Shown one piece after another: positions 5,763-34,661 of a stretch of 64,000 nucleotides of DNA; position 1 is the stretch's first letter, and each line of letters opens with the position of its first letter. This DNA comes from Bdellovibrionales bacterium (GTDB lineage: Bacteria; Bdellovibrionota; Bdellovibrionia; Bdellovibrionales; JAUICD01): contig CBDANC010000015.1 in the NCBI GenBank assembly GCA_965197425.1, forward strand, positions 384,001 through 448,000, given 5' to 3'. Below the pieces are notes generated by a model, which worked only from the letters and a program-made list of their open reading frames with translations, was not told the origin of the DNA and did no database searches. A program made the position numbers and the translations under genes.

Positions 5763-7523
5763 ATGAAAGAGTTTATAAAGGATCTTCGAAGAACACATAT
5801 GTGTGGCAAAGTTGATCTTACAAGTGTTTCCAAAGAGGTTGTATTGATGGGTTGGGTTGATACAGCTAGGGATCATGGTGGAAAGTTATTTGTTGATCTA
5901 AGAGATAGAACTGGGATTGTTCAAATTGTTATAGATGGTGATGTGGCTTGTGCTTCTGAAATAAGATCAGAATATGTGATAGCAGTATTAGGCAAAGTCT
6001 CGAAGAGGCCTTCTGGTATGAAAAATAGTGATTTAGATACAGGGGAAATTGAAGTTAAGGTTAGTAGGGTAGAGATTTTATCTAAATCAAAGGCTATGCC
6101 CATTCAGTTAAATGACAATAGGGTGGGGGAAGACATAAGGCTTAAGTATCGATACTTGGATTTAAGAAGCACAAAGATGCAGAAAAATTTATTAACGAGA
6201 CATAAGTTTTATCAGGTAGTAAGACATGCGTTGTGTGAAGAGAATTTTTTAGAAATTGAGACACCTATTTTATTCAAGAGTACTCCCGAAGGAGCTAGAG
6301 ACTTTTTGGTTCCATCCCATATTTCTAAACACAAATTTTATGCTCTACCCCAAAGCCCTCAGATGCTAAAGCAGCTTTTGATGATTTCTTCGTTTGATAG
6401 ATATTTTCAGATAGCTAAGTGTTTTAGGGATGAGGATTTAAGGTCTGACCGGCAGCCTGAATTTACCCAAATAGATTTGGAAATGAGTTTTGTGGATGTG
6501 GATCAAGTGCTGGAGTTAAGTGAAAAACTTTTGAGAGCTATTTGGGATTCTTTGTTGGGTGTCAAAATAGGGGAGATCGAGAGATTAACTTATGAAGATG
6601 CGATGAATAGATTCGGTACTGATAAACCGGATACTAGGTATGATCTTGAGCTTTTAGATTTATCTAAGGACTTCGAAAGTTGTGGCTTTGGTATTTTTGA
6701 AAATATTTTGTCTAAAGGTGGTGTAATTAAAGGATTGAAGATTTCATGTTCTGTTTCTAGATCAGGGCTGGATAAGTTGACAGAGCTTGTAAAGTCTCAT
6801 GGTGTTGGTGGGTTAATGTGGTGTAGAGATGTTGATGGAAAACATTCTGGTCCTCTTTGTAAGTTTATAAATGATAAGAAGTTAAATGGTGTATTAGACA
6901 AGGTTGGATTTGTGAAAGGTGATTTATTGTTGGTGGTTTCTTCTGACAATTGGCAAGTGGCTTGTAGTGCTATGGGAGCAGTTCGAAGTTTCTTTGCTTC
7001 ACAAAGTAAAGAGAACAAGCGTGAGGAATATAAGTTTGTATGGGTTACTGATTTTCCTCTGTTTGAGTGTGATGATGGAAAATGGAGTGCAAGTCATCAT
7101 CCATTTACAGCTCCAATTGATTCTGATTGGAAGTTGTTAGAAAAGGGTGATTTAGAAAGTTTGGGAAAGGTTAAGGCTAAGGCATATGATCTGGTTTGTA
7201 ATGGAAATGAAATTGCTGGTGGTAGCATAAGGATACACAAGTTTTCTGATATGGAATTAGTGTTTAAGACACTTTCTAAGTTTTCTGGTGTGGATACTTC
7301 GAAATTTTCTTTTTTTACAGATGCATTAAAGTATGGAACACCTCCTCATGGTGGTATCGCATGGGGTGTGGATAGAATAATCATGTTACTGTGTAATGTT
7401 GGTTCCATTAGAGATGTGATAGCTTTTCCAAAAACTACCAGTGGTACATGTTTAATGTCTGATGCCCCAAGTACAGTGGAAGATGATCAGCTACTAGACC
7501 TGGGATTAAAGGTGGTCAGGTAG
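5763..7523 (+). CDS. aspS: Aspartyl-tRNA synthetase (probably non-discriminating)
   Basis: RTHMCG, RDHGG (His typical of ND-AspRS), ALPQSPQ, RQPEFTQ and PPHGGIAWG. Confidence 0.97.
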   Translation: MKEFIKDLRRTHMCGKVDLTSVSKEVVLMGWVDTARDHGGKLFVDLRDRTGIVQIVIDGDVACASEIRSEYVIAVLGKVSKRPSGMKNSDLDTGEIEVKVSRVEILSKSKAMPIQLNDNRVGEDIRLKYRYLDLRSTKMQKNLLTRHKFYQVVRHALCEENFLEIETPILFKSTPEGARDFLVPSHISKHKFYALPQSPQMLKQLLMISSFDRYFQIAKCFRDEDLRSDRQPEFTQIDLEMSFVDVDQVLELSEKLLRAIWDSLLGVKIGEIERLTYEDAMNRFGTDKPDTRYDLELLDLSKDFESCGFGIFENILSKGGVIKGLKISCSVSRSGLDKLTELVKSHGVGGLMWCRDVDGKHSGPLCKFINDKKLNGVLDKVGFVKGDLLLVVSSDNWQVACSAMGAVRSFFASQSKENKREEYKFVWVTDFPLFECDDGKWSASHHPFTAPIDSDWKLLEKGDLESLGKVKAKAYDLVCNGNEIAGGSIRIHKFSDMELVFKTLSKFSGVDTSKFSFFTDALKYGTPPHGGIAWGVDRIIMLLCNVGSIRDVIAFPKTTSGTCLMSDAPSTVEDDQLLDLGLKVVR

Positions 7524-7778
7524 GCAGGCAATCGGGCAGTCAGGTAGGCAGGCAATCGGGCAGTCAGGTAGGCAGGCAATCGGGCAGTCAGGTAGGCAGG
7601 CAATCGGGCAGTCAGGTAGGCAGGCAATCGGGCAGTCAGGTAGGCAGGCAATCGGGCAATCGGGCAATCGGGCAATCGGGCAATCGGGCAATCGGGCAAT
7701 CGGGCAATCGGGCAATCGGGCAATCGGGCAATCGGGCAATCGGGCAGTCAGGCAGTCAGGCAGTCAGGCAGTCAGGCA
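7515..7778 (+). repeat. Compound 8-bp microsatellite upstream of four-helix cassette 1
   Basis: 6 x 24-bp GTCAGGTA-GGCAGGCA-ATCGGGCA, then 11 x ATCGGGCA, then 4 x GTCAGGCA. Confidence 0.95.
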
Positions 7779-7910
7779 ATTGCCTCCTTTTTTTAAAAAA
7801 TATTTCCTCCCAGCTAAAAACTATGGAGCAAAAAAATAATCCGGCAGTCAGGCAAACAGGCAAACAGGCACACCGGCAATCCGGGATCTGGTGATTGATT
7901 AAATTTTCTA

Positions 7911-7953
7911 AAAAAATTTCCTCCCATCAAAGATGGTAAGGAGGAAATTTTTT
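7911..7953 (+). promoter_or_regulatory. SD-sequestering hairpin in the cassette leader
   Basis: AAAAAATTTCCTCC (7911-7924) is the perfect reverse complement of GGAGGAAATTTTTT (7940-7953); ATG follows at 7954. Confidence 0.75.
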
Positions 7954-8247
7954 ATGAGAAAATTTAGAACTTATCAGTTAGCGGTTCAATTCTATAATAA
8001 TTCTAAGAATTTATATTTAAAAGAACCGCTAAAGAATCAATTTCAGAGAGCTACCTTAAGCATTGTGCTCAATTTAGCAGAAGGAAGTGCCAAACCTACA
8101 ACCAAAGACAGAAGAAAATTCTACAGAACCAGCCTAGGCTCACTTAGAGAAACACAAGCTATACTGGATCTCATAGATCATAAAAAGCTACTAAATGAAG
8201 CAAATAAACTAGGAGGATATCTTTACAAACTGTGTAAGAATACATAA
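7954..8247 (+). CDS. Four-helix-bundle protein (23S rRNA IVS-protein / Avd-like), copy 1
   Basis: 97 aa; family-typical LKNQFQRATLSIVLNLAEGS and SLGSLRET motifs. Confidence 0.88.
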   Translation: MRKFRTYQLAVQFYNNSKNLYLKEPLKNQFQRATLSIVLNLAEGSAKPTTKDRRKFYRTSLGSLRETQAILDLIDHKKLLNEANKLGGYLYKLCKNT

Positions 8248-8268
8248 ATCGGGCAGTCGGGCAATCAG

Positions 8269-8437
8269 GTTTCCCTGCGGGGCTTTTTTGAAGTTAGCAG
8301 CTTCACCGCTTTATAACGAAAATTTTAACATGCTCATGGCAATACCTTTAGCCTCGGAGACGCTTCGCTTGGACTCCTCATTAAAGATATTGCCACTTGC
8401 CTGTGTTTTTATGTTTATAGACGGTGTAATTGATGGG
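8269..8437 (-). repeat. ~170-bp hairpin element, copy 1 (candidate structured RNA)
   Basis: Near-identical to 42460-42629; 15-bp inner stem 8336-8350/8382-8396; strand is inferred. Confidence 0.8.
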
Positions 8438-8612
8438 AGAGGGTGGAGAAATTTTTTTGAAAAAATTAAATCAGTTGCCTGATTACCGATATCAGTTCCC
8501 AGATAACAGATACCAGATAACTGATATCAGATATCGGGTAGTATACTCTCCCTTGGTTTAGTTTATTTTATAAAAGTTATGGTCTTTGGGTGTTTGATTT
8601 ATAATTTTGAAG

Positions 8613-10982
8613 ATGCCAAGGTTCATCCTTTTATTAGTGTTATCTATCTCTTTTTCATATGTCAAAGTAGAGGCTTATCATCCAGGTGGTATATCCATGG
8701 GGAATATGGGTTGTCCCGTGTCCCAGAAAAAAAAGAGTAGGCTGGAGCATTTACAAGATGAGTTAGACGAGCTGGAAGAAGATTTAGATCATATGGAAGG
8801 CCGTTGTGAAGATCAAGAAGGTGACATAGAGGATTTATTAAGTCAGGTGATAGATGATATTAAGGAAGAAAATGATGATGCTAGCTCTAGTGATAAGATA
8901 GGCGACAATCAAATTAGACAAATAGAAAGACTGTTAGAAGACTATGTATTGAAAAATGGAGATGAAAATGTCAATGTTATAGGATGTGCTGACGGCACAG
9001 GAGGGGTGAGTTTTAGACCTCCTAGTGGTTACGATTTATTAGCAAAACAATTTTCTAGTAGCTATGTTTTAAGAATGTTGCAAGTAGCATTGGGCCCGCA
9101 GGCCTTTGCAATCGAATGTCCTGAAGGCAGAGATTGTTACGAACGAGAATGTTCAGGAGCTGTGTGCAATGAATTATATGCAAGAACTGGTAATTGTTGT
9201 GCCCATCAATCGTACGCAAATAGGTGCGCCAGCGTTTGTGGTGGTGGACCTACTCCTCCTCAACCCCCAGTTGTAACTGATCCAACCGCAGAGGACAGTT
9301 GTAGGCTTCTCATTGATTCGGGTGCTAACTGCGAAAGTTTAAAAGCAGGTGGTTGTTGTGGAACTACTGCTCTTGGAAGTCGTTGTTCGACTCAATGTTC
9401 AGGTTTGACGCCAGTAGGATCAGAATGTGATTTATTGTTTAGAGGATTTGTCTCACCTACTTGTCCACAAATTAAAGCAAAAAACTGTTGTAGTGACTCC
9501 AGGACCCCTAGCGAGTGTAAACAGCAGGGTCAACCCTGTGGTAATCCAGCACCTACACCTACACCAGTTGTACAACCCAGTCGATGTGAACAAGAACATG
9601 TGTGTGAGCAAATAGAGAATCAGGTGGAAAGCTTAGGCCGTGATCTTTTTGATGCTGATGATGACTGTGACGAATTAAGAGAAGAAGTACAAGAGTGTAG
9701 AAGTGATATGGAAAGATTAAGAGGAGAAATAAGAGAACTAAAAAGGTTAGTAAGGCGGGGAGAAAGAAGAGAGAGAAGATCTAGTAGAGACAGAGAAAAT
9801 AGCGGCAGGGATGGTGGAACCTGGTGTGTCGATTGCTCCACTGGTTTTAACAAAACCAGCTTTTTCACAAAACTTGGTGCGTCTATGATAATGGATGGCC
9901 TTGGTATGTACCTAACCAAAGAAGCTCACGATAATGCAGGAGAAGCAGCTGAAGCTATTGGTCATACATACAAACCTCCCCCTACACTTGGTTATGGTTT
10001 TGGAATGACAGCCGGAGCACTATACGGCGGTATGTGGGGCGGCCGCGGAAGAGGTGGCTGGGGCTGTGCAGGTGGAATGTACCCAGGTGGTCCGTTTGGA
10101 CGAATGGGTGGCGGACACGGTGGTATCTACGGACCTGCAGGTGGAATGTTCGGCTTTCCAGGAGGCGGTGGATATCCAACGGGCTTCCCTGGTGGAGGAG
10201 CCTTACTTCCAGGAGCATTTCTTCCTGGTATGGGCAGAGGAGGAATGGGAATAGGAATAGGTGGAATGGGTGGCCTCGGTATGGGCGGTCCATTTGGTGG
10301 AATGGGCGGTGGTCCATTCGGCGGAATGGGTTACCCTGGCTATATGACAGGTCCAGGATTTGGTATGGGCGGCAGGGGTAGTATAGGAATGGGTGCTGGT
10401 ATGGGCGGTCCATTTGGTGGAATGGGCGGTGGTCCATTCGGCGGAATGGGTGGAATCGGAATAGGTGCTGGCATGGGCGGTCCATTTGGTGGAATGGGCG
10501 GTGGTCCATTCGGCGGAATGGGCGGAATGGGCGGAATGGGTGGAATCGGAATAGGTGCTGGTATGGGTGGTCCATTTGGTGGAATGGGCGGAGTAGGAAT
10601 AGGCGGTGGTCCATTTGGTGGTGGTGCATTCGGTGGTATGGGTGGTCCATTTGGTGCTGGAGGAGCTGGTGGTGCGTATATAGCAGCTCAGCAAGCTCAA
10701 GCGCAGGCCAGACTTGAATATCAACAACGCATAATGCAAGCTTACCAACAACAGATGCAGGCGCAGGTCGCAAAGCAACGATCTGTGATGGCACTACAAC
10801 AAGAAATTGGTACTCTATATCAGCGTATGTACAACGTTCAGTATGGTGGTAATATGTACGGGGGAACTGGTTTTGTAGGAGCTGCTACTATAGGAGTAGG
10901 TGGTGTAGTTGGTGGTGGAGCGTCAGTAGGCAGAGGCCCAATACGAGGAAACAGAGGTACTCCTAGACCTAGCGGAAGATAA
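8613..10982 (+). CDS. Secreted protein with coiled coils, Cys-rich region and Gly/Met-rich GGPFGGMG repeats
   Basis: Signal peptide ending VEA; long ORF; low-complexity tail followed by a Gln-rich helix. Confidence 0.8.
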   Translation: MPRFILLLVLSISFSYVKVEAYHPGGISMGNMGCPVSQKKKSRLEHLQDELDELEEDLDHMEGRCEDQEGDIEDLLSQVIDDIKEENDDASSSDKIGDNQIRQIERLLEDYVLKNGDENVNVIGCADGTGGVSFRPPSGYDLLAKQFSSSYVLRMLQVALGPQAFAIECPEGRDCYERECSGAVCNELYARTGNCCAHQSYANRCASVCGGGPTPPQPPVVTDPTAEDSCRLLIDSGANCESLKAGGCCGTTALGSRCSTQCSGLTPVGSECDLLFRGFVSPTCPQIKAKNCCSDSRTPSECKQQGQPCGNPAPTPTPVVQPSRCEQEHVCEQIENQVESLGRDLFDADDDCDELREEVQECRSDMERLRGEIRELKRLVRRGERRERRSSRDRENSGRDGGTWCVDCSTGFNKTSFFTKLGASMIMDGLGMYLTKEAHDNAGEAAEAIGHTYKPPPTLGYGFGMTAGALYGGMWGGRGRGGWGCAGGMYPGGPFGRMGGGHGGIYGPAGGMFGFPGGGGYPTGFPGGGALLPGAFLPGMGRGGMGIGIGGMGGLGMGGPFGGMGGGPFGGMGYPGYMTGPGFGMGGRGSIGMGAGMGGPFGGMGGGPFGGMGGIGIGAGMGGPFGGMGGGPFGGMGGMGGMGGIGIGAGMGGPFGGMGGVGIGGGPFGGGAFGGMGGPFGAGGAGGAYIAAQQAQAQARLEYQQRIMQAYQQQMQAQVAKQRSVMALQQEIGTLYQRMYNVQYGGNMYGGTGFVGAATIGVGGVVGGGASVGRGPIRGNRGTPRPSGR

Positions 10983-12886: not shown

Positions 12887-13799
12887 AATAGTTGTTAAAG
12901 ACTCAGATAAAGTTATAGAAATTCCTCAGCATGATATAAATCAAAAAGACATTGAACAAAAAACAGCCTTTTTTAGAGAACAAACTAAAACAAATAATAC
13001 CACAGAACTTATTCCATACATTGACCTAACCAACCTAAATGAAACTGATACAAAAGATGATATTAAAAAACTTGTAAATAAGGCTTTGTCTTTAAAACAT
13101 AAAAATTTACCATCTGTAGCAAGCATTTGTATCTATCCTTCCATGCTAAAGTTTGCAAAAGAAAGACTGGATGGAAACTCCACTTGTAGTGAAAACTCCG
13201 CTCGTAGTGGATACTCCACTGGTAGAAGTAGCAAAATCAATGTGGAAACTCCACTGGTAATTGCTACAGTTACGGGTGGTTTTCCCTCCGGAAAACTTAA
13301 CTTAGAATCAAAGTTGATAGAAACTAAAGAAGCAATCCAAATGGGGGCAGATGAAATTGACTTTACTATTTGTAGAGACTACTGTAAGCCTTCCGAAGCC
13401 CAAAAATTATTTGATGAAATTTACAATATAAAAAAACTAGTGGGAAGAAGACCTCTAAAGGTAATTTTGGAGACAGAAGAGCTACATAGCTATGACAAAA
13501 TAAAATTGGCATCCAACATAGCACTCTATGCAGGTGCTGACTTTATCAAAACCTCAACAGGAAAAATTAAAGGTCCACTTGATCACAAAATAGCCTCTTT
13601 TCTAGTTATTATGGATAGCATCCTAGATTTCTACAACCAAACAAAAAAGCAAGTTGGTATAAAGGTATCCGGAGGTATTAGTGGGGTGGATACAGCCATG
13701 CTCTTTTTTAATATGGTACAAACACAAATGGGGGAAAAATGGGTAAGCCCCAAATTTTTTAGAATAGGCTCAAGTAAACTTATGGATAATATTGTTTAG
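12879..13799 (+). CDS. deoC: Deoxyribose-phosphate aldolase with a repeat-derived loop insertion
   Basis: IDLTNL, GADEID, LKVILET, GADFIKTSTGK, GIKVSGGI and FRIGSS. Confidence 0.93.
   Translation: MNKIVVKDSDKVIEIPQHDINQKDIEQKTAFFREQTKTNNTTELIPYIDLTNLNETDTKDDIKKLVNKALSLKHKNLPSVASICIYPSMLKFAKERLDGNSTCSENSARSGYSTGRSSKINVETPLVIATVTGGFPSGKLNLESKLIETKEAIQMGADEIDFTICRDYCKPSEAQKLFDEIYNIKKLVGRRPLKVILETEELHSYDKIKLASNIALYAGADFIKTSTGKIKGPLDHKIASFLVIMDSILDFYNQTKKQVGIKVSGGISGVDTAMLFFNMVQTQMGEKWVSPKFFRIGSSKLMDNIV
13171..13259 (-). repeat. 4 copies of the 18-bp palindromic unit inside deoC
   Basis: atggaaactccacttgta / gtgaaaactccgctcgta / gtggatactccactggta / 17-bp gap / gtggaaactccactggta. Confidence 0.85.
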
Positions 13800-13919
13800 A
13801 TCGGGCAATCGGGCAATCGGGCAATCAGTCAATCAGGCAATCGGGCAATCGGGCAATCGGGCAATCAGTCAATCAGTCAATCAGGCAATCGGGCAATCGG
13901 GCAATCGGGCAATCAGGCA
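13800..13919 (+). repeat. 15 x 8-bp tandem repeat (ATCGGGCA/ATCAGGCA/ATCAGTCA)
   Basis: Starts at the base after the deoC stop; same unit as 7515-7778. Confidence 0.95.
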
Positions 13920-13930
13920 AACTGGCTATG

Positions 13931-14003
13931 GTCTCCTTTTTTTAAAAATATTTCCTCCCAGATAAAAACCATGGAGCAAATATTTTTTTCAAAAAAAGGA
14001 GAC
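13931..14003 (+). promoter_or_regulatory. SD-sequestering long hairpin (second leader type)
   Basis: GTCTCCTTTTTTT (13931-13943) pairs with AAAAAAAGGAGAC (13991-14003); inner AAAAATATTT/AAATATTTTT. Confidence 0.75.
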
Positions 14004-14013
14004 TATATACATT

Positions 14014-14307
14014 ATGAAAAATTTTAAAACATATCAATTAGCTGTTCAGTTCTACAATAATTCTAAAGGGATATACCTAAAAGAACCACTCAAAAATCAA
14101 TTCCAAAGAGCTATATTAAGCATAGTATTAAATTTGGTTGAAGGTAGTGCAAAGTTCAGTAACAAAGAAAGACGAAAATACTACAGAACCAGTTTAGGCT
14201 CACTTAGAGAAACACAAGCTATACTAGATCTCATAGATCATAAAAAGCTAACAGAAGAAGCAAGTAGGTTAGGAGGGTATCTTTACAAACTTTGCAAGAA
14301 TACATAA
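14014..14307 (+). CDS. Four-helix-bundle protein, copy 2
   Basis: 97-aa paralogue of copy 1. Confidence 0.88.
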   Translation: MKNFKTYQLAVQFYNNSKGIYLKEPLKNQFQRAILSIVLNLVEGSAKFSNKERRKYYRTSLGSLRETQAILDLIDHKKLTEEASRLGGYLYKLCKNT

Positions 14308-14368
14308 TCGAGGAACCAGGCAACGGATCACAGATTCCAGATAACGGATCCCCGATCTAGTCGGGCAA

Positions 14369-15047: not shown

Positions 15048-16688
15048 ATGGTTTTGAAATTATCTGGTGTTTTGGTTTTTATTTTTGTTGGTGTGGCCAG
15101 TTATATTTATGGCCAGAGTGGTTCTGATGTAGTGGGTAATTGGTATAGTGTGTTGCCCCCTGTATTTGCGGTTACTGTAGCTCTTATTACCAACAATGTT
15201 TTTATAAGTTTAATTGGTGCGGTTCTTCTTGGTGCTTTTTTAATCAAGATGCCTTCTGGTGAATTTCTTACGGGTGTACTTGATTCACTCTACAAGTTTT
15301 TTAGTATTCCTATTCTGGAGTTAACAGATACTTTTAATCTTCAGGTCATTGGTTTTGTTGTATGTGTTTTGGCTTTGATCTCTGTTGTTATAGTTTCTGG
15401 TGGTTTAAAGGCTGTGATTCGGTACATATCGGTTTATGCGAATGGCAGAAAGTCTACTAATTTTGTAACCTTTGTTTTGGGAATTTTGATGTTCATAGAT
15501 GATTATGCCAATACTATGTTGGTTGGCTCTTCTATGAGAGGAGTCTATGATGCAAATAAAATTTCGAGGGAAAAGCTGGCATTCATAGTTGATTCAACAG
15601 CAGCTCCCATTGCTGGGCTTGTTTTTATAAGTACTTGGGTTGGGTATGAAGTTGGTCTTTTGGGTCAGGTAGCGGGTGATTTAACCCTAGGGGTAGGGGG
15701 TTTTTCTATGTTTTTTGATGCAGTAATTTTTAGATTTTACTGCATATTTACATTGGTGTTTGTGTTGGTGAACATATTTTTGGATAAAGATTTTGGACCA
15801 ATGGCCTCTGCTGAGGCCAGTACCACACAGGTTCCTGTTAGTAAAGAAATTCAATCAGACAAAAATGCTGTGCCTAGTGTTATGGTTGCGCTAGTGCCAA
15901 TGGTGTTTTTGGTTTTGTATGTATTTATGGGTCTGTGGATAGATGGTGGAGGAGGTAAGGTTATAAGTGAAAAGTCCGTTTTATCTCTTCTTAGTTTTTC
16001 TGATTGGAAAGATGTAGTATCCGCTTCAGAAAATAATATATTGATACTTTTTCATGCCTCTCTATACGGGCTTATTTTGGCTATGATTTTGGGAATATCT
16101 ATCTCAAAGGTTCATGTAAGAAATATCTTTAAGGGCGCACTACGTGGTGTTAAAAAGAGTATGCTTCCTATTTCTATCCTAGTGCTGGCATGGTCTATTA
16201 AAACAGTTTGTAAAGAACTTGAGACAGGACCGTTTTTGGTATCAATCTTGGCAGACTCTATATCTCCAGTTTGGTTTCCTATAATACTTTTTGTTATCGC
16301 CGGATTAACAGCATTTACTACCGGTACTTCTTGGGGAACCATGGCTATTCTCATTCCATTTGCAATTCCATTGGCAAGTGCATTGGACGGAGGAGCTTAC
16401 GGGCTGGTTACCATACTTTCCGTGGCTACTATTTTAGACGGTGCAATTTTTGGGGATCACTGCTCTCCGATTTCAGACACAACAATTATGAGTTCGATAT
16501 CAAGTGGATGTGATCATATGTCACATGTAAAAACCCAAGCACCTTACTCAGTGGTTATAGCATCTGTAGCTTTGATTGGTTATTACTTATCTAGTATGGT
16601 CCATTTTGTAATAACATTTGCTTTAGGCATTGCTTTAATATTTCTGTTACATAAATATCTATGTAAGCTCTGGAACAAAAATAGTTGA
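15048..16688 (+). CDS. NhaC-family Na+/H+ antiporter-like transporter
   Basis: FIDDYAN, DSTAAP, TGTSWGTM and GDHCSPISDTT motifs; many TM helices. Confidence 0.9.
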   Translation: MVLKLSGVLVFIFVGVASYIYGQSGSDVVGNWYSVLPPVFAVTVALITNNVFISLIGAVLLGAFLIKMPSGEFLTGVLDSLYKFFSIPILELTDTFNLQVIGFVVCVLALISVVIVSGGLKAVIRYISVYANGRKSTNFVTFVLGILMFIDDYANTMLVGSSMRGVYDANKISREKLAFIVDSTAAPIAGLVFISTWVGYEVGLLGQVAGDLTLGVGGFSMFFDAVIFRFYCIFTLVFVLVNIFLDKDFGPMASAEASTTQVPVSKEIQSDKNAVPSVMVALVPMVFLVLYVFMGLWIDGGGGKVISEKSVLSLLSFSDWKDVVSASENNILILFHASLYGLILAMILGISISKVHVRNIFKGALRGVKKSMLPISILVLAWSIKTVCKELETGPFLVSILADSISPVWFPIILFVIAGLTAFTTGTSWGTMAILIPFAIPLASALDGGAYGLVTILSVATILDGAIFGDHCSPISDTTIMSSISSGCDHMSHVKTQAPYSVVIASVALIGYYLSSMVHFVITFALGIALIFLLHKYLCKLWNKNS

Positions 16689-16719
16689 TCGGACAACCAA
16701 GTAGCAGTCAATCGGGTGT

Positions 16720-16852
16720 CTGATTAGATCTGTGATCTGGCACTCAGGGATCTGATATCTGCATCCGGGATCTGGCATCAAGCATCCGTAATATTCTTAA
16801 TTTTTCCAAAAAAATTTCCTCCCATCAAATGATGGTAAGGAGGAAATTTTCT
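16720..16852 (+). repeat. Cassette 3 leader: degenerate GATCTGGCA repeats plus SD hairpin
   Basis: GGGATCTGGCATC (16767-16779) has its exact inverse at 17153-17165; same TTTCCTCCCATC...GGAGGAAA hairpin as copy 1. Confidence 0.8.
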
Positions 16853-17146
16853 ATGAAAAAATTAAAAACATACCAACTAGCTAAAAAGTTTTATCAAAAC
16901 TCAAAAAAACTCTGCTTAAAAGAACCACTAAAAAATCAGTTCCAAAGAGCTACCTTAAGCATTGTACTAAATATCGCAGAGGGGAGTGCCAAACCAACAA
17001 TAAAAGAAAGAAAAAGATTCTATGTAATAAGCCTAGGATCGCTTAGAGAAGTACAAGCCATACTAGATCTGATAGAACACAAAAACCTAATGGAAGAAGC
17101 AAATATACTCGGAGGATTTTTATACCAATTATGGAAAAATACATGA
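16853..17146 (+). CDS. Four-helix-bundle protein, copy 3
   Basis: 97-aa paralogue (MKKLKTYQLA...LYQLWKNT). Confidence 0.88.
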   Translation: MKKLKTYQLAKKFYQNSKKLCLKEPLKNQFQRATLSIVLNIAEGSAKPTIKERKRFYVISLGSLREVQAILDLIEHKNLMEEANILGGFLYQLWKNT

Positions 17147-17177
17147 TCCCAGGATGCCAGATCCCAGATCTGGTATT

Positions 17178-23302: not shown

Positions 23303-23330
23303 CACAAGCATTAAACAGGACATAAATTTG

Positions 23331-23652: not shown

Positions 23653-23717
23653 AAACCGACCGTAAGGGAGGTTCTTTCAATTGGAAAACATAAAGGTTTA
23701 TCCCGTAAGCCAATTGG
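23653..23717 (+). repeat. Family-C ~65-bp structured repeat, copy 1
   Basis: Matches the reverse complement of 63313-63375; CAATTGG...CCAATTG stem. Confidence 0.8.
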
Positions 23718-23746
23718 ATAAAACGTAACTAATCAGTCAATTAATG

Positions 23747-26676: not shown

Positions 26677-26709
26677 GGGTACAGAGGCTTATCACATATG
26701 ATGTGATAA

Positions 26710-27054: not shown

Positions 27055-27146
27055 AGAACCCCCTTTTTTGCCCGTTTGGCAGGCAAGACACAGCTCCCAT
27101 TCTAACTCAAAAAAATATAATTTACATGATGAATATGATGATAATT

Positions 27147-28940
27147 TTAAGCTAGGAGGTTATATGTGATTAACATGAGGACATAAGCTAGTACCGTGTA
27201 TGCTATAAACAATAGTATTGGTATTTTGTAGCTTCCTAACTCTTTTCTAATTATGGCCAGGGTTGATACACATTGCAGAGCTATGGCATAGAACACTAAT
27301 AGGCTTAGTCCAGATGCCAGGCTTAAATCTGCTAGATGCTCCGATAGCCCTACCAAGTTATTGTTTATATTTTCTAGGCCGTAGAGTGTTGCCAGTGTTC
27401 CTACAAACACTTCTCTTGCCAAAAAAGATGATATTATTGCTACTCCAAATTTCCAGTCTAAACCTACTGGTGCAAATATTGGGCTAATTAGATGACTAAT
27501 TTTTGCAAGCCACGATGAAGATAAGCTTCCAGCTCCGTTTGGAAAATATCCTAGTAACCACACCACAACAGTAACTGAAAATATTATAAATCCAGCTTTG
27601 AGCACAAATAGCCAAGATTGTTGTAGGCCGGTTAATGTTATTGATTTTAGGTTTGGCATTCTGTAGGGAGGAAGCTCAATAATAAATGGCATATCTGAGT
27701 ATTTTTTTGCAAATGTGTTAGCTAAAAAATACGATATTAACAACGCTGCCACAATTCCTAGAGAATATAACCCGGTAAAGAAGGTACCCTGAAGCCCCAC
27801 AACTCCAAAGAAACTTATATTTGGTATTAACACTGAAATTAGCAGTGCATATACTGGCAGCCTTGCAGAACATGCCATTAACGGAATCGTAAGCATCGTA
27901 AGCAACCTTCTTCTTGGAGAAGCTATTGTTCTAGCTGCAAAGATTGCAGGTATAGCACATGCATGTGCCGATAGAAATGGTATAAAACTTCTGCCAGATA
28001 ACCCAAAAAAACTAAACACTCTATGGCAGAATATACTAGCACGAGCTAAGTACCCCGAATCTTCTAAAAATGATATTATAAAAGTTAGTATAAATATTTG
28101 CGGCACAAATACCAAAAATGATCCACAACCACCAAACAATGCATCTTTAACAAAGTCTTTTAATATTTGGTTTGAAATAAGGTTGGCCGTAGCTGTTCCA
28201 GTTTGTGAAATTAGGGTTTCAATTGCATTCATCAGAGGTGCTGACCAAGTAAAGATAGCTTGAAACAAAATTAACATTGAAGATACAAAGATTACTGTAC
28301 CCCAAAGTCCCGATAGAAAAATTTTATCTAGCTTATTACCTCTTTTTATTAGAAGTCCTGGATTAGACAAAAATGTTCTAGCTACTTTTCTGCTTAAGTT
28401 ATAAATATCATCTTTTGATTCTGGTACTTGTTCTTGTAGTATACCTACGGACTCATCTTTTATTGCTTGTTTTAATTTGTCTAAATTTTCTCCGGTCTTT
28501 GCAGAAATGGGTACTGTATGTGTTTTTAGATCCTTTTCTAATTCTTCAATGGTAATTTTGACATCATTTTTTTTGATTTCATCTATCATGTTAAGGGCAA
28601 AAATAAATCTTTTATTATGTTTTCTGGCTATCTCTTTTGCCTGTAACCCCACCACTAAACTTCTCTCCAACCTGGTGGCATCTAGTACACACACCACAAC
28701 AGACTTTTGGGTTTTTACTCCGTCTATAAATTTGTTTATGGCTACTTCTTCATCACTAGTTATAGGGTCTAAGGAATAGACACCTGGGTAATCTATATAC
28801 GTAATGTTGTTCGAACATCCTGATTTTACTTCTACCGTAACCCCTGGAAAGTTGGATACTTTTTGATTTGCCCCAGCTAGTTTATTAAAAAGAAGGCTTT
28901 TTCCCGTATTAGGTTTTCCAATAAAAAGAGCAGTTGTCAC
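27147..28940 (-). CDS. feoB: Ferrous iron transporter FeoB
   Basis: GKPNTGKS, NFPGVTVE, DYPGVYSL, LEDSGYLAR and CSARLPVY. Confidence 0.95.
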   Translation of the reverse strand: MTTALFIGKPNTGKSLLFNKLAGANQKVSNFPGVTVEVKSGCSNNITYIDYPGVYSLDPITSDEEVAINKFIDGVKTQKSVVVCVLDATRLERSLVVGLQAKEIARKHNKRFIFALNMIDEIKKNDVKITIEELEKDLKTHTVPISAKTGENLDKLKQAIKDESVGILQEQVPESKDDIYNLSRKVARTFLSNPGLLIKRGNKLDKIFLSGLWGTVIFVSSMLILFQAIFTWSAPLMNAIETLISQTGTATANLISNQILKDFVKDALFGGCGSFLVFVPQIFILTFIISFLEDSGYLARASIFCHRVFSFFGLSGRSFIPFLSAHACAIPAIFAARTIASPRRRLLTMLTIPLMACSARLPVYALLISVLIPNISFFGVVGLQGTFFTGLYSLGIVAALLISYFLANTFAKKYSDMPFIIELPPYRMPNLKSITLTGLQQSWLFVLKAGFIIFSVTVVVWLLGYFPNGAGSLSSSWLAKISHLISPIFAPVGLDWKFGVAIISSFLAREVFVGTLATLYGLENINNNLVGLSEHLADLSLASGLSLLVFYAIALQCVSTLAIIRKELGSYKIPILLFIAYTVLAYVLMLITYNLLA

Positions 28941-29013
28941 AGCTTATCCAAAAATATTTTTGTTGTAATAGAAAACTTAGATGCTTAACAGTGGATATAG
29001 TCGTTTTTGTTTA

Positions 29014-29268
29014 TTACCTCTGAATAAGTACTTTTTGAGCAAGGTCTTTTGGTAGAGAAATTTGAAAACCTCCAACATTAAACACTTTAGACTTCCCAAA
29101 AGGTATAGTATGTTCACAAATTATCTCTGATTGTAAATCAAGGCCCATGCCCCTAAGCCTATCAACATGGCCATCTGCAAGACCAGAAAAACCATCAACA
29201 TATCCAGTTTCTTTTTTCTTTAAATCCCAAAGGGATGTTTTTTTATCAACTGAAACTTCCGACATCAT
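29014..29268 (-). CDS. feoA: FeoA-family protein
   Basis: RLRGMGL motif, size, and position upstream of feoB. Confidence 0.8.
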   Translation of the reverse strand: MMSEVSVDKKTSLWDLKKKETGYVDGFSGLADGHVDRLRGMGLDLQSEIICEHTIPFGKSKVFNVGGFQISLPKDLAQKVLIQR

Positions 29269-29451
29269 CGTACCTTAAACATCATCACATCTCATCATTA
29301 CACTTCCAAACAGTATCGTTGTTAAGCCAGTATCGTATCTAACATCAGCTATATGATCATCAAATATTCGATAATTACTACCAGCAAAACCAGAAGAGAC
29401 TAGAGTAAAATTACTTGAAATACAATTTTATTCTGGCTAAAACTTTATGCT

Positions 29452-29721
29452 ATGAAGCGCAAAGGTAGTATAAAGGCCAGGTGCAGTGTTCCATTGCTAG
29501 ATCTTCACGGAGTAACTTCGGATGAGGTTTTTGGTTTATTGGATAAATTTTTGTTAGATGCTATGGATGAAGTTGTGGTAAAGGTGATGCCTGGAAAGGG
29601 TACCGGTGTTGTAAAAAATAAAGTGGTGGAATACTTGGAAGGTGCTGGTTACAAATGGAGCTATGAGCTTAAAGGGGATGGCAACTATAACACTGGCGTT
29701 TTATTGGTTAGAATGGCATAG
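29452..29721 (+). CDS. Smr-domain protein
   Basis: LDLHG, GKGTG and NTGVLLV. Confidence 0.85.
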   Translation: MKRKGSIKARCSVPLLDLHGVTSDEVFGLLDKFLLDAMDEVVVKVMPGKGTGVVKNKVVEYLEGAGYKWSYELKGDGNYNTGVLLVRMA

Positions 29722-29729
29722 GATCTTTT

Positions 29730-30443
29730 ATGGCAAAGAAATTAACTAAGGAAGATTTAAGCACCAAGGGAATATTGCACAATATTGCTCTAGGGTCTTT
29801 GGCATTTTATCAAAATCACAAAAAACTGGTTATATTTTTGCTAGGATTTTTGGTTCTTGGTGGCATTTTTTTTAAGGTAATGTATGACAAAAAAAAGGGG
29901 GCCCTTCTGGAAGGTTTTAAAGCCCTATATGTACCAATGAGTGAACAAGAAAAAATAACTAAGTTAGAACTTGAAAAGGTAGAAGTAAATAGCCAAGAGA
30001 TTAATATAGAAGAAATAAAGTCTCAGGTGAAACTTGATTATGATAAGCTTCTTAGAGAGGAGCATCCAGATCAGGTTATGATTTTTGCTGCCTTGAATTT
30101 GGCAGATATTCACAGGAAAAATGGTGATATAGATGCCGCCATTTCTGCATTTTCAAATGTAAATTTAGATGGTAAATATTTTTTAAGTGGTCTAGGGGCT
30201 ATGATGTTGGCATCCTTGTATGAAGAGTCTGCTAATTGTGATAGAGCTTTGGAGTTATGGGATGAAGTTATAAAAAAGTTTTCTTTTTTTAGAACTGAAG
30301 CTCTGTTGAAAAAAGCTCTTTGTTTAGAAGATAGTGATATGGAGCAAGCTTTGGATATCTACACTAGGTTGTCGGTCGATTCGCCAGATACTTCTGAAGG
30401 TGTTTTAGCAAAAAAGCTACTTATGATTAAGCGTGGGAAGTAA
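29730..30443 (+). CDS. Membrane-anchored TPR protein (YfgM-like)
   Basis: N-terminal TM helix plus TPR-like helices; directly upstream of the bamB-like gene. Confidence 0.65.
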   Translation: MAKKLTKEDLSTKGILHNIALGSLAFYQNHKKLVIFLLGFLVLGGIFFKVMYDKKKGALLEGFKALYVPMSEQEKITKLELEKVEVNSQEINIEEIKSQVKLDYDKLLREEHPDQVMIFAALNLADIHRKNGDIDAAISAFSNVNLDGKYFLSGLGAMMLASLYEESANCDRALELWDEVIKKFSFFRTEALLKKALCLEDSDMEQALDIYTRLSVDSPDTSEGVLAKKLLMIKRGK

Positions 30444-31528
30444 TGAATATATTAAAAATTTTGTTATTAGGCTTACTTTTCGTCTCCTGTATTTCTGCTG
30501 GTGAAAAACCTATGGATGGTATGACAAGAAAGTGGATTAGAAGTACTATAAAACCCCCTTACTTAGGCCCCAAGTTATCTCATTTGATGAGTCCTGTTTT
30601 TTTGAATGAACTTGTAATTCAAGGTAATGGTCACGGCTCTTTGGTAGCTATAGACGCTGATAGTGGTAGGATTTCTTGGAAATTTAATGCTAAGCATGGG
30701 GTACATGGTGCCACTGTCTTGGGGGATAAGTTATTTTTTGGTACAGAAGCAGGTTGGGTTGTTTGCTTGGATAATAAGGGCAACCAACTTTGGGATTTAA
30801 AATTAGAAGCTGGTGTCTATTCAAAGCCTACAATACATGAAAACTTCCTTTATTTATTAACCGGCGATAATGCTGTCTATTCAATAAATCTAGATACTAA
30901 AAACATAACTTGGACTTACAGCCGAAACAGCAATGTTTCTATGAGTGTGTTAGGAAGTAGTTCCCCTATACCCTACAAAGATATTCTGTTGGTAGGCCTT
31001 AGTGATGGGTATCTGGTGACATTAAATCAAAAATCCGGTTTGTTAGTCTGGGAAAAAAAACTTAACACTTCAGATAAGTTTAAAGATATAGATGGGATGG
31101 CTTTGGACGGCGATATGTTGTATGTATCAAATTTTGATGCAGATTTACTTGGTCTTAATGCTAAAGATGGCAGCTTGGTATGGAAGAGCGAGAATTCGGG
31201 AGGAGGTAGTGATCCTACAGTAGCGGAAGATATTGTATTGATCTCATCATCTAACGGCGGCGTAGAGGCACTTAAAAAGGCTACGGGCGAAAAGCTCTGG
31301 ACATTTAAACTAAAATCAGGATTTGCAACAAAACCCCTGGTATCAAGTAACACTGTATATTTTGGCCAGAACAATGGTCCTGTTGTTGGTTTAGATATTA
31401 GAGACGGCAAACAACTGTTTTCTTATGCTGTTTCAGGGACATTGGCAACACCTAGTATATCCGGCAATACTCTTTACCTTATCTCTAATGCAGGTAATTT
31501 GAACGCCATAAACACCAACACTGATTGA
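30443..31528 (+). CDS. PQQ-like beta-propeller lipoprotein (BamB-like)
   Basis: Lipobox FVSC; repeated A-x-D-x-x-x-G-x-x-x-W motifs. Confidence 0.8.
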   Translation: MNILKILLLGLLFVSCISAGEKPMDGMTRKWIRSTIKPPYLGPKLSHLMSPVFLNELVIQGNGHGSLVAIDADSGRISWKFNAKHGVHGATVLGDKLFFGTEAGWVVCLDNKGNQLWDLKLEAGVYSKPTIHENFLYLLTGDNAVYSINLDTKNITWTYSRNSNVSMSVLGSSSPIPYKDILLVGLSDGYLVTLNQKSGLLVWEKKLNTSDKFKDIDGMALDGDMLYVSNFDADLLGLNAKDGSLVWKSENSGGGSDPTVAEDIVLISSSNGGVEALKKATGEKLWTFKLKSGFATKPLVSSNTVYFGQNNGPVVGLDIRDGKQLFSYAVSGTLATPSISGNTLYLISNAGNLNAINTNTD

Positions 31529-31597
31529 TCCTGGTCCAACTAAAGCTAGGGAATTTTCATACTCCGCCAATTCACCTTGTTTCTAGCCTCATTAACC

Positions 31598-31695
31598 TCA
31601 CCTTATCTGGTATATTTTTAATTTTTTCATAAGATATGTTGTCTCTCTTTTTTTAAAAAAAGGAGACAATTGCCAGATCCCGGACTGCCCGATCT
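31598..31695 (-). pseudogene. Truncated four-helix cassette (leader plus first codons)
   Basis: Minus strand reads GATCGGGCAGTCCGGGATCTGGCAATTGTCTCCTTTTTTT...ATG (31630) MKKLKIYQIR*, compared with copy 3 MKKLKTYQLA. Confidence 0.75.
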
Positions 31696-31890
31696 CTATG
31701 TAGTAGGTACTTCTCCTTACGATAATGGATTGGCTGTGAGGGAGACGCAAAAACATGATATTATTTCTACCTCTGATTTGTCGAAAAAACGGAGGGTTTA
31801 CGGGGGACCTTCCGTAACGTAATTCGTCCAGCAAAAATGGAATAAGTCCCATTGTTTGCTGAACGGGAATCAGTGTTGAGCTTTTATGAC

Positions 31891-32011
31891 CGGGATTGGC
31901 ATCTTGTTCCAGAGCTGGGCATCCACTCGGCTAAAAAATGACTTGGCTACACTTGGACTTCGTCTTGTTCGTTCCGCCAATCCATTTTATTAACCTCATT
32001 GGAAGACCTTT
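31891..32011 (+). repeat. Family-B dispersed repeat
   Basis: GGGATTGGCATCTTGTTCCAGAGCTGGGCATCCACTCGGC...CCTCATTGGAAGACCTTT. Confidence 0.85.
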
Positions 32012-32163
32012 GTGTATCATTGTCGTACAAGGTGACTCTTTAGAATTTGCTTGAAGATGTTACCTGTTTTTTCCGAAAAGTCATAGTCAGGCTTTTATTT
32101 ATGTTGGTTAGGTACAAACTGTATAGCCATAGTTTGTAGTTTTGTAGGTATACAAATAGGTTT

Positions 32164-34119
32164 ATGGGATCAAGTGGAATAAATATAGTGGTGGTAGATC
32201 ATCAAACTTTTGGTGAAACACTAGTAAAACATCTAAAGGAGGCAGGGTTTAATGCTGTTTTAACCCGTAAACCTAGTGATGCAATAAGAGAATTTGGTGT
32301 TAGATCAGTCCATGCATTTATAATTGAGTGTGTGTTACCTGGCTATTCTGGTATAGACCTTGCCAAGAGCCTAAAAGAAACTGGTGCTTCTTCCATACCA
32401 TTCTACTTCATGTCTGGATTATTCAAAAGTCAGACCTTCATAAAGAAAACCCTTTCAGATACTGGAGGAGAGGGCTTTTTTGAAAAACCACTAAACTACG
32501 AACATATTATTACAACTTTAAAAGATAGGTTTAAAATACAACCTGAAGCCAAAGAAAATAATTCAATGGTTAGTTTAATGATGGATGACAATCTAACTGA
32601 TAGATCTTGTCTTGAGGTATTGCAAAATACAGATAAAGTTTACGGTTATGATATACCTGCATTGATATCTATTATCTCTCGTACAAATATTATGGGAGTG
32701 GCCAGATTTAGTTCAAAAAGTGATATGGCTAAGGTATATATATCAAAAGGCAATGTTATATCTGTATTGTCAAACGATACAAACTCATACTGGGGTTCTT
32801 TGTTACTTGAAAAAAACCTGATTAACCCAGAAGACCTTCAATTTCACTTATCTAAAAATGATAAAGGTAAAATAGGTACAAGACTTATTGAAGCTAATTT
32901 AATTAGCCCACACACGGTAGATTTTATTTGTCTTGAACAGGCTCGTATTAGAATTGGTAGAATGATAAAAGATGTTCGTTATTCATTTAACTTTACAAAT
33001 TTTAACTTATCTCAAACAGATAGCATGCAACGATGCAATTCTTCTTATATGTCAAATAGATTTATATCTGAATGGGTATACATAAAGACCCCTGTTGAGT
33101 TTTTGAGGCAGGTTTACATTCCGTTTTTGGAATACAAAGTTACAAAATCTTCTAATTATAAAAATAGAAACAACATTTTATCCGTACCATATGTCAGTCA
33201 CGATACAGAACTTTTAGATTCTTTATCTGAAAAAGAATATTCTCTTTCAGAATTATTATCTTTCAAAAAGAATCAAGAAATCTACAGACTAGTGCACTTC
33301 TTGATTTTAACTGATGTGATTACTTTTAAACGAAATAACAACCATGAAAATTATCAATCTAGAATTGAAGTTTTAAATAAATTTAAGAAGGATATTGAGA
33401 AACAAAACTACTTTCAAATATTAGGTGTTAATGAGGGTAAAGAATTTGATGAATACTCTCTGAAAAGCTCTTATATTAGTCTTACTAAATCATTTCACCC
33501 TGACAAATTAATAGACGCTCCTTCAGATTTGAGGGCCATTTCTAATGAAATATTTAACATTATTTCGGAGGCATATAACACATTACTTGATCCTGATAAA
33601 AGAGCAAAATATGAGTCGGGTATAGAAAGTATTAAAGCTGATATAAAGCTAAGTTTAGATAATTTATTATCAGATGCAAAAGCTCATTTGAAAAACTATC
33701 AGGAAACTAAGGCCTATGACTTATTACAAAAAGCTGTGAAATTACAAAAGCCATCTAGTGAGCTTAGCCTTTATTTATTATGGGCAAGGATAACTAAAAA
33801 TAAAGATGAGGAAATTGCACAAAATGATTTAATGGATATTTGGGATACACTAAACCATATTCCTGTGGAAGATAGAAACACCGCTTTGTATTATTTTGTT
33901 AAGGGGTTATTACAGAAAAAAATTGGAGACTACGATCTATCTGAGCTTAATTTTAAAAAGTCAATTTTATTTGACGGCAAATTTATTATTGCAAGAAGTG
34001 AGTTGAAAAAGACAGAGAAACTGAAAAAGTCTAAATCAATCTCTATGAGACTGGGTAGTGCAAAAAAGCAACTCAAAGATATGTTTTTCAACAAAGATAA
34101 ACAAAAGAAAGCCAGTTAG
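32164..34119 (+). CDS. Receiver-like domain + central domain + DnaJ (HPD) + TPR protein
   Basis: N-terminal REC-like (VVVDH...FFEKP); NYFQILGV...FHPDK J-domain; TPR-like tail. Confidence 0.8.
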   Translation: MGSSGINIVVVDHQTFGETLVKHLKEAGFNAVLTRKPSDAIREFGVRSVHAFIIECVLPGYSGIDLAKSLKETGASSIPFYFMSGLFKSQTFIKKTLSDTGGEGFFEKPLNYEHIITTLKDRFKIQPEAKENNSMVSLMMDDNLTDRSCLEVLQNTDKVYGYDIPALISIISRTNIMGVARFSSKSDMAKVYISKGNVISVLSNDTNSYWGSLLLEKNLINPEDLQFHLSKNDKGKIGTRLIEANLISPHTVDFICLEQARIRIGRMIKDVRYSFNFTNFNLSQTDSMQRCNSSYMSNRFISEWVYIKTPVEFLRQVYIPFLEYKVTKSSNYKNRNNILSVPYVSHDTELLDSLSEKEYSLSELLSFKKNQEIYRLVHFLILTDVITFKRNNNHENYQSRIEVLNKFKKDIEKQNYFQILGVNEGKEFDEYSLKSSYISLTKSFHPDKLIDAPSDLRAISNEIFNIISEAYNTLLDPDKRAKYESGIESIKADIKLSLDNLLSDAKAHLKNYQETKAYDLLQKAVKLQKPSSELSLYLLWARITKNKDEEIAQNDLMDIWDTLNHIPVEDRNTALYYFVKGLLQKKIGDYDLSELNFKKSILFDGKFIIARSELKKTEKLKKSKSISMRLGSAKKQLKDMFFNKDKQKKAS

Positions 34120-34130
34120 TTGATCAATTA

Positions 34131-34194
34131 GTCGGGCAATCAGGCAGTCGGGCAATCAGGCAAACAGGCACACCGGCACACCGGCAATCCGGGA
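34131..34194 (+). repeat. 8 x 8-bp degenerate tandem repeat upstream of cassette 4
   Basis: GTCGGGCA/ATCAGGCA/AACAGGCA/CACCGGCA units. Confidence 0.9.
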
Positions 34195-34262
34195 TCTGGT
34201 GAATTGATTAAATTTTCTAAAAAAATTTCCTCCCATCAAAGATGGTAAGGAGGAAATTTTTT

Positions 34263-34556
34263 ATGAGAAAATTTAGAACTTATCAGTTAGCGGTTCAATT
34301 CTATAATAATTCTAAGAATTTATACTTAAAAGAACCACTAAAGAATCAATTTCAAAGAGCTACCCTAAGCATTGTACTCAATTTAGCAGAGGGAAGTGCC
34401 AAACCTACAACAAAAGATAGAAGAAAGTTCTACAGAACCAGTTTGGGCTCGCTTAGAGAAACACAAGCTATACTGGATCTCATAGATCATAAAAAGCTAA
34501 TAAATGAAGCCAATATACTAGGAGGATATCTTTACAAACTGTGTAAGAATACATAA
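34263..34556 (+). CDS. Four-helix-bundle protein, copy 4
   Basis: Differs from copy 1 at 2 of 97 residues; same leader hairpin. Confidence 0.88.
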   Translation: MRKFRTYQLAVQFYNNSKNLYLKEPLKNQFQRATLSIVLNLAEGSAKPTTKDRRKFYRTSLGSLRETQAILDLIDHKKLINEANILGGYLYKLCKNT

Positions 34557-34573
34557 ATCGGGCAGTCGGGCAA

Positions 34574-34615
34574 AAGTTAGGAGCATACCTTTACAAACTA
34601 TATAGGAATACCTGA
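34574..34615 (+). pseudogene. Extra 3' fragment of a four-helix gene
   Basis: Translates KLGAYLYKLYRNT*, compared with KLGGYLYKLCKNT* in copy 1. Confidence 0.75.
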
Positions 34616-34661
34616 ATCTGGTGGCTGATGCAGATCCCAGAGTGCCGGATTGCCTGATAAA

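Follow-up and report, generated by a model that had tools for sequence, protein, structure and literature searches.

The window analysed here, a stretch of 64,000 nucleotides from a Bdellovibrionales genome (assembly GCA_965197425.1, contig CBDANC010000015.1, positions 384,001 to 448,000), holds four copies of a cassette composed of arms of 7-8-bp repeats, a palindromic leader and a gene for a 97-aa four-helix-bundle protein. The four intact open reading frames (ORFs) start at 7954, 14014, 16853 and 34263 (copies 1-4), each 3' of a co-directional host gene: aspS, deoC, the gene for an NhaC-family transporter and the gene for a REC-DnaJ protein, respectively. Three of the four fill gaps between convergent genes. 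Arrays of 8-bp units lie at 7527-7780, 13800-13920 and 34135-34170, and hairpins hiding the Shine-Dalgarno sequence (SD) precede the ORFs, with fold z scores of -4.8 to -6.9 (200 shuffles per leader). An initial annotation, made from the letters of the window, had described these four paralogues, two fragments (at 31598 and 34574), the arrays, the hairpins and the three convergent-gap placements, all of which are present as placed. The parts of the cassettes and their remnants are as follows, with the basis of each in brackets.

7515..7780, plus strand: copy 1 left arm array, 24-bp units then 8-bp units (sequence)
7781..7838, plus strand: type-B leader hairpin, truncated, from an older cassette inside which copy 1 is nested (comparison with type-B leaders)
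7839..7899, plus strand: inner arm of copy 1, near-identical to the copy 4 arm (sequence)
7900..7966, plus strand: copy 1 type-A leader hairpin, covering the SD and first codons (fold z -5.1)
7954..8247, plus strand: copy 1 ORF, 97-aa four-helix bundle (profiles, structure model)
8248..8268, plus strand: direct-orientation arm units 3' of the copy 1 stop (sequence)
8269..8437, no strand: 170-bp repeated passenger segment (94% identity to 42460-42629)
8438..8540, minus strand: opposite-strand cassette remnant, arm and leader start (sequence)
13797..13926, plus strand: copy 2 left arm array, beginning within the deoC stop codon (sequence)
13927..14007, plus strand: copy 2 type-B leader hairpin, covering the SD (fold z -6.9)
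14014..14307, plus strand: copy 2 ORF (profiles)
14308..14368, plus strand: mixed direct and inverted arm units reaching the convergent gene (sequence)
16687..17172, plus strand: complete copy 3 cassette, missing from close strains (strain alignment)
16797..16865, plus strand: copy 3 type-A leader hairpin (fold z -4.8)
16853..17146, plus strand: copy 3 ORF (profiles)
31598..31693, minus strand: remnant made up of an arm, a collapsed type-B leader and the initial 10 codons (31598-31630) (sequence)
31737..32014, no strand: modules of a second hairpin-repeat family, separate from the cassette (sequence, strain alignment)
34121..34208, plus strand: copy 4 left arm, beginning directly 3' of the REC-DnaJ stop (sequence)
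34209..34275, plus strand: copy 4 type-A leader hairpin (fold z -5.4)
34263..34556, plus strand: copy 4 ORF; copy-1-like sequence makes up its 3' part and the following 17 nt of arm, up to 34573 (strain alignment)
34574..34615, plus strand: orphaned 3' end of an older resident gene, last 13 codons (in-frame gene part in a related strain)
34616..34661, minus strand: inverted arm stopping at the stop of the convergent gene (sequence)
42460..42790, no strand: ORF-less remnant beyond the range of the initial annotation (sequence)

The first arm unit of copy 1 forms the last codons and stop of aspS, a gene that ends differently in the sister species. The copy 3 cassette has GATC-containing units at both ends and an outer stem formed by its left arm and downstream inverted arm. 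The remnant at 42460..42790 comprises the 170-bp passenger, an opposite-strand arm and leader start, and a direct arm with a collapsed type-B leader. The passenger occurs at five loci in the genome, two in the window between arms and three more distant, and at none in the sister species; it has no significant fold (z -1.25). An Rfam scan of the window gave no match, and a promoter scan of copy 3 gave a single site, on the minus strand and below the shuffle mean, with no promoter-like site on the sense strand.

Protein family and predicted fold

All four copies pass the cut-offs of TIGR02436 (51.9-61.3 bits; cut-off 24) and PF05635 (50.2-61.9 bits; cut-off 33.8), which bears out their initial assignment to the family of proteins encoded in 23S rRNA intervening sequences (IVSs). 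The predicted structure is a four-helix bundle (pLDDT 97.8) whose top Foldseek matches are Xcc0516 (2GSC) and BT_0352 (2RLD), with TM scores up to 0.88. The protein is 67-77% identical to copies from a neighbouring genus; for 91 flanking orthologues the median is 46%. Kinship with Avd, the protein of diversity-generating retroelements (DGRs), follows the accessible text of PMC10053308, which describes the PF05635-type family as homologous to it; Avd itself is a pentameric RNA-binding barrel that binds DGR RNA together with reverse transcriptase (RT) (10.1101/2023.10.23.563531, accessible part). By analogy, the cassette protein is predicted to form an Avd-like ring that binds nucleic acid.

Copies across the genome and their placement

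The 1.60-Mb assembly that contains the window (G000, 99.4% complete; C-numbers denote its contigs) has 19 near-full copies, together with 14 remnants that lack the ORF or are internally deleted, all on five main contigs. Pairwise DNA identity among the copies is 64-95%. In a quick tree of 97 columns, from which fragments below 75-80 residues and frames with stops were excluded and insertions in G000 copies were dropped, they group on one side of a branch, with 69 other rows on its far side (SH-aLRT 92). Twelve of the 19 are intact, and seven are broken through loss of the SD or start, or through an insertion. The copies at C12:103711, C12:118767, C13:85015 and C15:99947 carry an identical deletion that removes the SD and start and is bounded by short A-rich direct repeats, one in the leader and one at the ORF start.

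Every near-full copy has protein or tRNA genes as neighbours and none has rRNA neighbours (0/19); cassettes near C13 28050 and C14 311130 begin immediately 3' of the CCA terminus of a tRNA gene. A co-directional gene lies 5' of 15 copies, two others are antisense within operons and two are in divergent gaps. Placement after the stop of a co-directional gene, described initially for the four copies of the window, applies to all of these and to 15/19 across the genome. Convergent gaps hold ten of the 19 copies, compared with 184 of 1227 gaps genome-wide (p 1e-4), and the proposed spread into 3' untranslated regions is better read as this enrichment, a pattern that selection alone would also give.

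Copy number across the 41 genomes surveyed with the family profiles ranges from 0 to 19, and 21 genomes have none. In two genomes of the neighbouring genus there are 14 and 19 related copies, whose arms and leader are similar. The high-copy genomes searched for mobilising enzymes are G000, G002 (14 copies), G021 (18 copies) and G004. The sister species (G001; a single-contig genome of the same genus, 93% complete, with a median of 69% amino-acid identity over 1056 reciprocal hits) served as a cassette-free comparison: it has no PF05635 match and no three-unit arm cluster, only a single weak 31-bp sequence match. Clusters of at least three arm units number 22 in G000 and 0 in G001, and arrays outside full cassettes in G000 are mostly cassette remnants; the repeats are therefore not a genome-wide feature independent of the ORF.

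Empty sites and strain alleles

We compared 23 cassette sites of G000 with the sister species. A downstream orthologue was lacking for one of them and rearrangement affected three; the other 19 (19/22 testable) were empty in a syntenic setting, with gaps of at most 216 bp in 15 of the 19. The gap at the NhaC-family site is 7 bp in G001 and 489 in G000, and that at the REC-DnaJ site 32 and 542. Sites are also not shared with two genomes of the same family, where at most one of 36 loci has a single neighbour in common with a G000 site, several of these loci having had no nearby orthologue to compare.

Strain alleles came from read-run contigs of four runs aligned to window positions 15600-35400, which cover copies 3 and 4; one sample (X1) is the probable source of G000 and is not counted as independent support. 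The copy 3 site is empty in strains about 95% identical, from two samples of one study (X3 and X4), where 16678 is joined to 17173 through 22 letters instead of 494, and in X3 the flanks are 93.8% and 96.1% identical to G000. About 8 of these 22 letters are a diverged host-gene end, which places the cassette at about 16687 to 17172. The filled allele has no target duplication, has lost about 14 letters of the empty allele and has changed the host stop from TAG to TGA. Against G001 the sequences are too diverged for target duplications to be read. The cassette is thus absent from orthologous positions in both the sister species and close strains.

Copy 4 records a second kind of event. In samples from two studies (X3 and X5) position 34484 is joined to 34574, and in X5 the joint consists of 30 different letters that keep the resident gene in frame through the fragment at 34574. 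In its place G000 has an 89-letter patch, a copy-1-like 3' end followed by the same 17 arm letters that follow copy 1. The left joint of the patch lies in homologous sequence; its right joint, which comes after two arm units, has no homology. Copy-1-like sequence has thus overwritten the 3' part of copy 4. Copy 1 is itself nested within an older type-B leader, and a related strain has 29 arm letters where G000 has 31694-32012.

Arms, leader and paired ancestors

Arms vary in length and sequence among copies, and there are no fixed terminal inverted repeats. GATC stands at the outer left end of 16 of 24 arms, a figure that is descriptive only since the search pattern itself contained GATC. The downstream inverted-repeat remnants described initially did not prove general: a downstream inverted arm matches above the random 99th percentile in three of 19 copies, all in the window, and is no better matched to its own left arm than to others, and a direct-orientation match scores in seven of 19. 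Several inverted pieces run into a leader start, which identifies them as left arms of opposite-strand cassette remnants, and most of the downstream inverted pieces are arms of such remnants. We rejected an extended RNA stem between the two arms as a general feature (mean -65.8 kcal/mol for own pairs, -68.4 for cross pairs). An outer stem does form in the copy 3 cassette (z -4.3 with the leader counted in).

The leader is best read as the central palindrome of a back-to-back gene pair that has lost one gene, and would still pair over the SD and start. This reading rests on two observations. The 5' side of type-A leaders in G000, when reversed, reads as an SD and first codons: it agrees with the ORF start at 10-12 of 14 letters and varies with that start between copies beginning MKKL and MRKF. 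In copy 1 it reads as the SD and first codons of the lost partner gene. Loci elsewhere are indeed paired. Among 36 GTDB loci of other Bdellovibrionota, outside the taxonomic family of G000, with 350 bp of room (16 further loci had too little), 29 stand back to back with another gene of the protein family and 30 contain a perfect inverted repeat of at least 10 bp, up to 38 (control, 17/395), whereas none of 28 loci from the same taxonomic family is paired. Of 80 metagenome loci, 59 had room; 28 of these are paired and 40 have a leader z below -3. Ancient clades of A and of B partners that would span all pairs were not seen in the quick tree; in closely related elements the two partners move as one, and pairs appear to have arisen on more than one occasion.

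Selection and recombination

Between copies 1 and 4, 13 codons differ synonymously and 2 non-synonymously, exactly as first counted by hand, for a non-synonymous to synonymous rate ratio (dN/dS) of 0.033; a single substitution and a single gap separate their 90-nt leaders. The uncorrected ratio (pN/pS) is at most 0.35 in all 171 copy pairs, and the median corrected ratio is 0.13 over 134 unsaturated pairs. Constraint on protein and leader, suggested earlier from copies 1 and 4, is supported, although the likeness of those two copies is partly the product of recent overwriting. Shared states comprise 107 synonymous and 80 non-synonymous changes. Private changes are neutral-like in the seven broken copies (8 synonymous to 24 non-synonymous) and depart from neutrality in the 12 intact ones (22 to 30; p 4e-4). 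Nearest neighbours switch along the ORF: C14:346420 and C15:352894 are 98% identical in the last third and 83% overall.

Mobilising enzymes and a second repeat family

We searched for ten families of mobile-element enzymes: RT, Y1, GIY-YIG, tyrosine recombinase, IS110, rve, DDE_Tnp_1, resolvase, Rpn and HNH. G000 has no match for RT (PF00078), Y1 (PF01797), IS110, rve or tyrosine recombinase. Its candidates in the other families were rejected: the single GIY-YIG protein is UvrC-sized (our label follows from size), the one DDE_Tnp_1 and one Rpn match are on the foreign-looking contigs C11 and C4, and the resolvase and HNH matches are single orthologues common to G001 with no arms around them. 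The initial annotation had seen no mobilising enzyme in the window; extended to RT, HUH and GIY-YIG genes across G000, the search found none with matching flanks. RT was absent from G000, G002 and G021 among the four high-copy genomes searched, with three in G004 only, and Y1/RAYT was absent from the same three, with one in G004. All five genomes tested, among them G001, have DprA, ComEC and RNase III.

Two contigs, C4 and C11, appear foreign to the bin: their median identity to G001 is 43-48%, compared with 63-69% for the main contigs. They carry second copies of ribosomal genes and some proteins 89-92% identical to the neighbouring genus, and their findings call for care. Rpn/Transposase_31 has 16-19 genes in each of G001, G002 and G004 and none on the main contigs of G000. 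Neither G000 nor G001 has a tyrosine recombinase match, so no XerC/D was found in either.

A second, non-coding repeat family consists of hairpin modules of about 60-70 nt that form mosaics at about 154 regions of G000, for which no cognate transposase was found. Its regions in the window are 22433-22639, 23653-23723, 31737-32014, 51815-51952, 53238-53316, 58298-58486 and 63154-63397; a close strain has about 125 additional letters at 22433. A 66-nt module occupies one and the same ORF site in five of the 19 copies (C6:2725, C12:103711, C13:85015, C13:209069 and C15:352894), in frame in four of them, adding 22 residues, and C13:85015 holds a second, different module. Cassettes in G002 and G004 are interrupted by a different module family. 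Because G001 has a related module family and no cassettes, the two families are separate, and modules invade cassettes.

Other genes of the window and contig

Two tandem Fic-domain genes lie at 38-1285 and 1398-2471, followed by a weakly HigA-like 108-aa ORF at 3143-3469. A 791-aa secreted-looking protein (8607-10982) with a cysteine-rich middle and a long Gly/Met/Pro repeat tail has no Pfam match and has an orthologue in G001. Long-period tandem repeats (129, 159 and 249-264 bp) at 53983-56610 encode cysteine-rich units. C15:241255-246286 and C15:344777-347488 encode paralogous signal-peptide proteins, absent in G001, with repeated units that read as helix-turn-helix-like.

Discussion

The multi-copy cassette of repeat arms, palindromic leader and 97-aa four-helix-bundle gene is very probably a mobile or selfish element. 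Its copy number, its empty sites and the absence of a mobiliser with the same flanks agree with the non-autonomous dispersed element first proposed. Our favoured reading, to which we assign a probability of about 0.5, is an enzyme-less selfish cassette that spreads through host recombination and whose protein acts on its own cassette. As for the parts of this reading, spread by host recombination anchored on cassette repeats appears somewhat probable, and action of the protein in cis is a suggestion that we place a little below even odds. A single-stranded DNA piece carrying arm, leader, ORF and arm, from a neighbouring cell or another site, would pair through one of its ends with an arm or ORF already present, and its other end would be joined through a few bases of microhomology. 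RecA-anchored illegitimate integration of this kind, with one-sided homology, is documented in transformable bacteria (PMC6382021, accessible part). First entry at a virgin site would be rarer and imprecise and would leave no target duplication, and insertions would persist mainly at gene ends and in convergent gaps. The hairpin would limit translation to a low level for as long as the transcript stays uncut and folded, and the protein would work on its own cassette; such cis action would explain selection on every spreading lineage.

Several points weigh against this reading. The absence of a mobiliser extends to the ten families searched, and DprA, ComEC and RNase III, being present in cassette-free G001 also, allow a recombination route and do not indicate it. 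The virgin-site entry at 16853 shows no homology anchor, and the nearest paralogue of copy 3 in G000 is only 85% identical, so its donor is not in this assembly. That G000 gained copy 3, as opposed to X3 and X4 having lost it cleanly, is a probable polarity decided by parsimony with G001. The pairwise homoplasy index (PHI) test for recombination is weak (p 0.019 at 30 nt, 0.23 at 60 and 0.66 at 100 nt), private changes do not differ significantly between broken and intact copies (p 0.16), and Avd is not among the listed Foldseek matches of the model. We regard virgin-site entry, the PHI signal and the putative role of the protein as the weakest links.

Spread through RNA, raised in the initial annotation, would have the transcript cut out by RNase III, as in 23S IVSs, bound by the protein ring and copied to DNA by a borrowed RT or a host polymerase. 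The homology to Avd (PMC10053308), which binds DGR RNA together with RT (10.1101/2023.10.23.563531), is in keeping with this route to the extent of those reports' accessible text, as are the co-directional genes upstream of 15/19 copies, the outer stem of copy 3, the cleanest cassette (z -4.3), and the presence of RNase III; a preference for cis action would likewise explain selection on intact copies. We nevertheless found nothing specific to it and consider it unlikely, since RT is missing from three of the four high-copy genomes (G000, G002 and G021, with 19, 14 and 18 copies) and occurs, three times, only in G004, matched outer stems occur in 3/19 copies, there is no target duplication, four copies lack a co-directional upstream gene, and the sense strand of copy 3 has no promoter-like site. 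The cassette might instead be passive cargo of whatever machinery spreads the larger hairpin-module family, whose roughly 154 regions adjoin cassettes and enter 5/19 ORFs; in G002 and G004 another module family breaks into cassettes. This is improbable: G001 has related modules and no cassette, modules take the place of an arm and do not bracket the cassette, the polymorphic cassette at 16853 is module-free, and a conserved protein would be unneeded.

A role that benefits the host, in which the protein would bind arms on mRNA 3' ends and tune stability or read-through, could account for strong purifying selection, for arms that often begin within a host stop codon, for the convergent-gap enrichment and for a protein 67-77% identical across genera where 91 flanking orthologues have a median of 46%. 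Absence from G001 and from 21 of the 41 genomes surveyed, sites that are conserved neither between genomes nor between strains, seven broken copies of 19, 14 further remnants and host genes with no common function make such a regulator quite improbable. Least probable by far is an addiction module, a toxic protein restrained by its hairpin in cis as in type I toxins. Conservation of the SD-burying structure across the subfamily and multi-copy dispersal would suit it; expression of the Coxiella homologue, however, did not slow growth of E. coli in the accessible account (PMC4990558). Hairpin-less copies have mostly lost the SD or start too, yet many copies decay freely and no antitoxin is visible.

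Repetitive extragenic palindromes and their composites (REP, REPIN and BIME sequences with RAYT transposases) and miniature inverted-repeat transposable elements (MITEs) are likewise small, dispersed, intergenic, enriched between convergent genes, mosaic and spread in trans. Unlike them, the cassette holds a conserved non-catalytic gene, and no Y1/RAYT is present in G000, G002 or G021. It also differs from insertion sequences and MITEs in lacking fixed ends, a target duplication at the one site with a close empty allele, and a cognate transposase with the same ends among the ten families. The TAACTGA heptamer repeats of Beggiatoaceae, Cyanobacteria and Bacteroidetes are short, intergenic, tandem and patchy, with a different unit sequence (PMC4679880); the main text of that report, so far as accessible, mentions no helix bundle, intervening sequence, IVS, 23S or S23 and draws no link to the cassette gene. 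The literature yielded no published description of this cassette, in a search whose reach stopped short of supplements and most subscription papers.

Among the closest known systems is the ORF-bearing 23S rRNA IVS of Leptospira and Coxiella burnetii (S23p), which has the same family and fold, a size of about 430-490 nt, a patchy distribution and no mobility enzyme. Copy 3 likewise has an outer stem, although matched terminal stems occur in only 3/19 cassettes. The Coxiella IVS has tandem heptamers 5' of its ORF and a poorly translated native leader (PMC4990558, accessible part). The cassette differs in lying between protein or tRNA genes, in having a leader palindrome over the SD and start, and in its many copies at lineage-specific sites, and its ORFs are under purifying selection whereas the Coxiella IVS ORF is reported to be decaying. 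DGR Avd is a comparable small basic four-helix protein of homologous fold (PMC10053308, accessible part), but G000 has no RT, template or variable repeat, and the best structural matches are 2GSC and 2RLD. The best reading is that the cassette works like an IVS-type selfish insert; being outside rRNA genes, it is not an rRNA IVS.

Structures of the PF05635/TIGR02436 family have been available since 2006. To the questions of what these proteins do and how ORF-bearing rRNA IVSs move, G000 brings a genome that lacks a candidate transposase, filled and empty alleles with defined ends among close strains, and an overwriting event caught in place. We suggest, as a tentative and rather doubtful generalization, that enzyme-free selfish cassettes of this kind form a class, in which an Avd-like ring without catalytic activity would bind the 7-8-nt repeats of its own cassette and steer the cassette into host recombination; the ancestral unit would be a two-fold symmetric gene pair around a palindrome, readable either way, and ORF-bearing 23S IVSs would be copies that landed in rRNA. 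If true, this would give a function to a large unexplained family of bacterial proteins and would explain the spread of IVSs.

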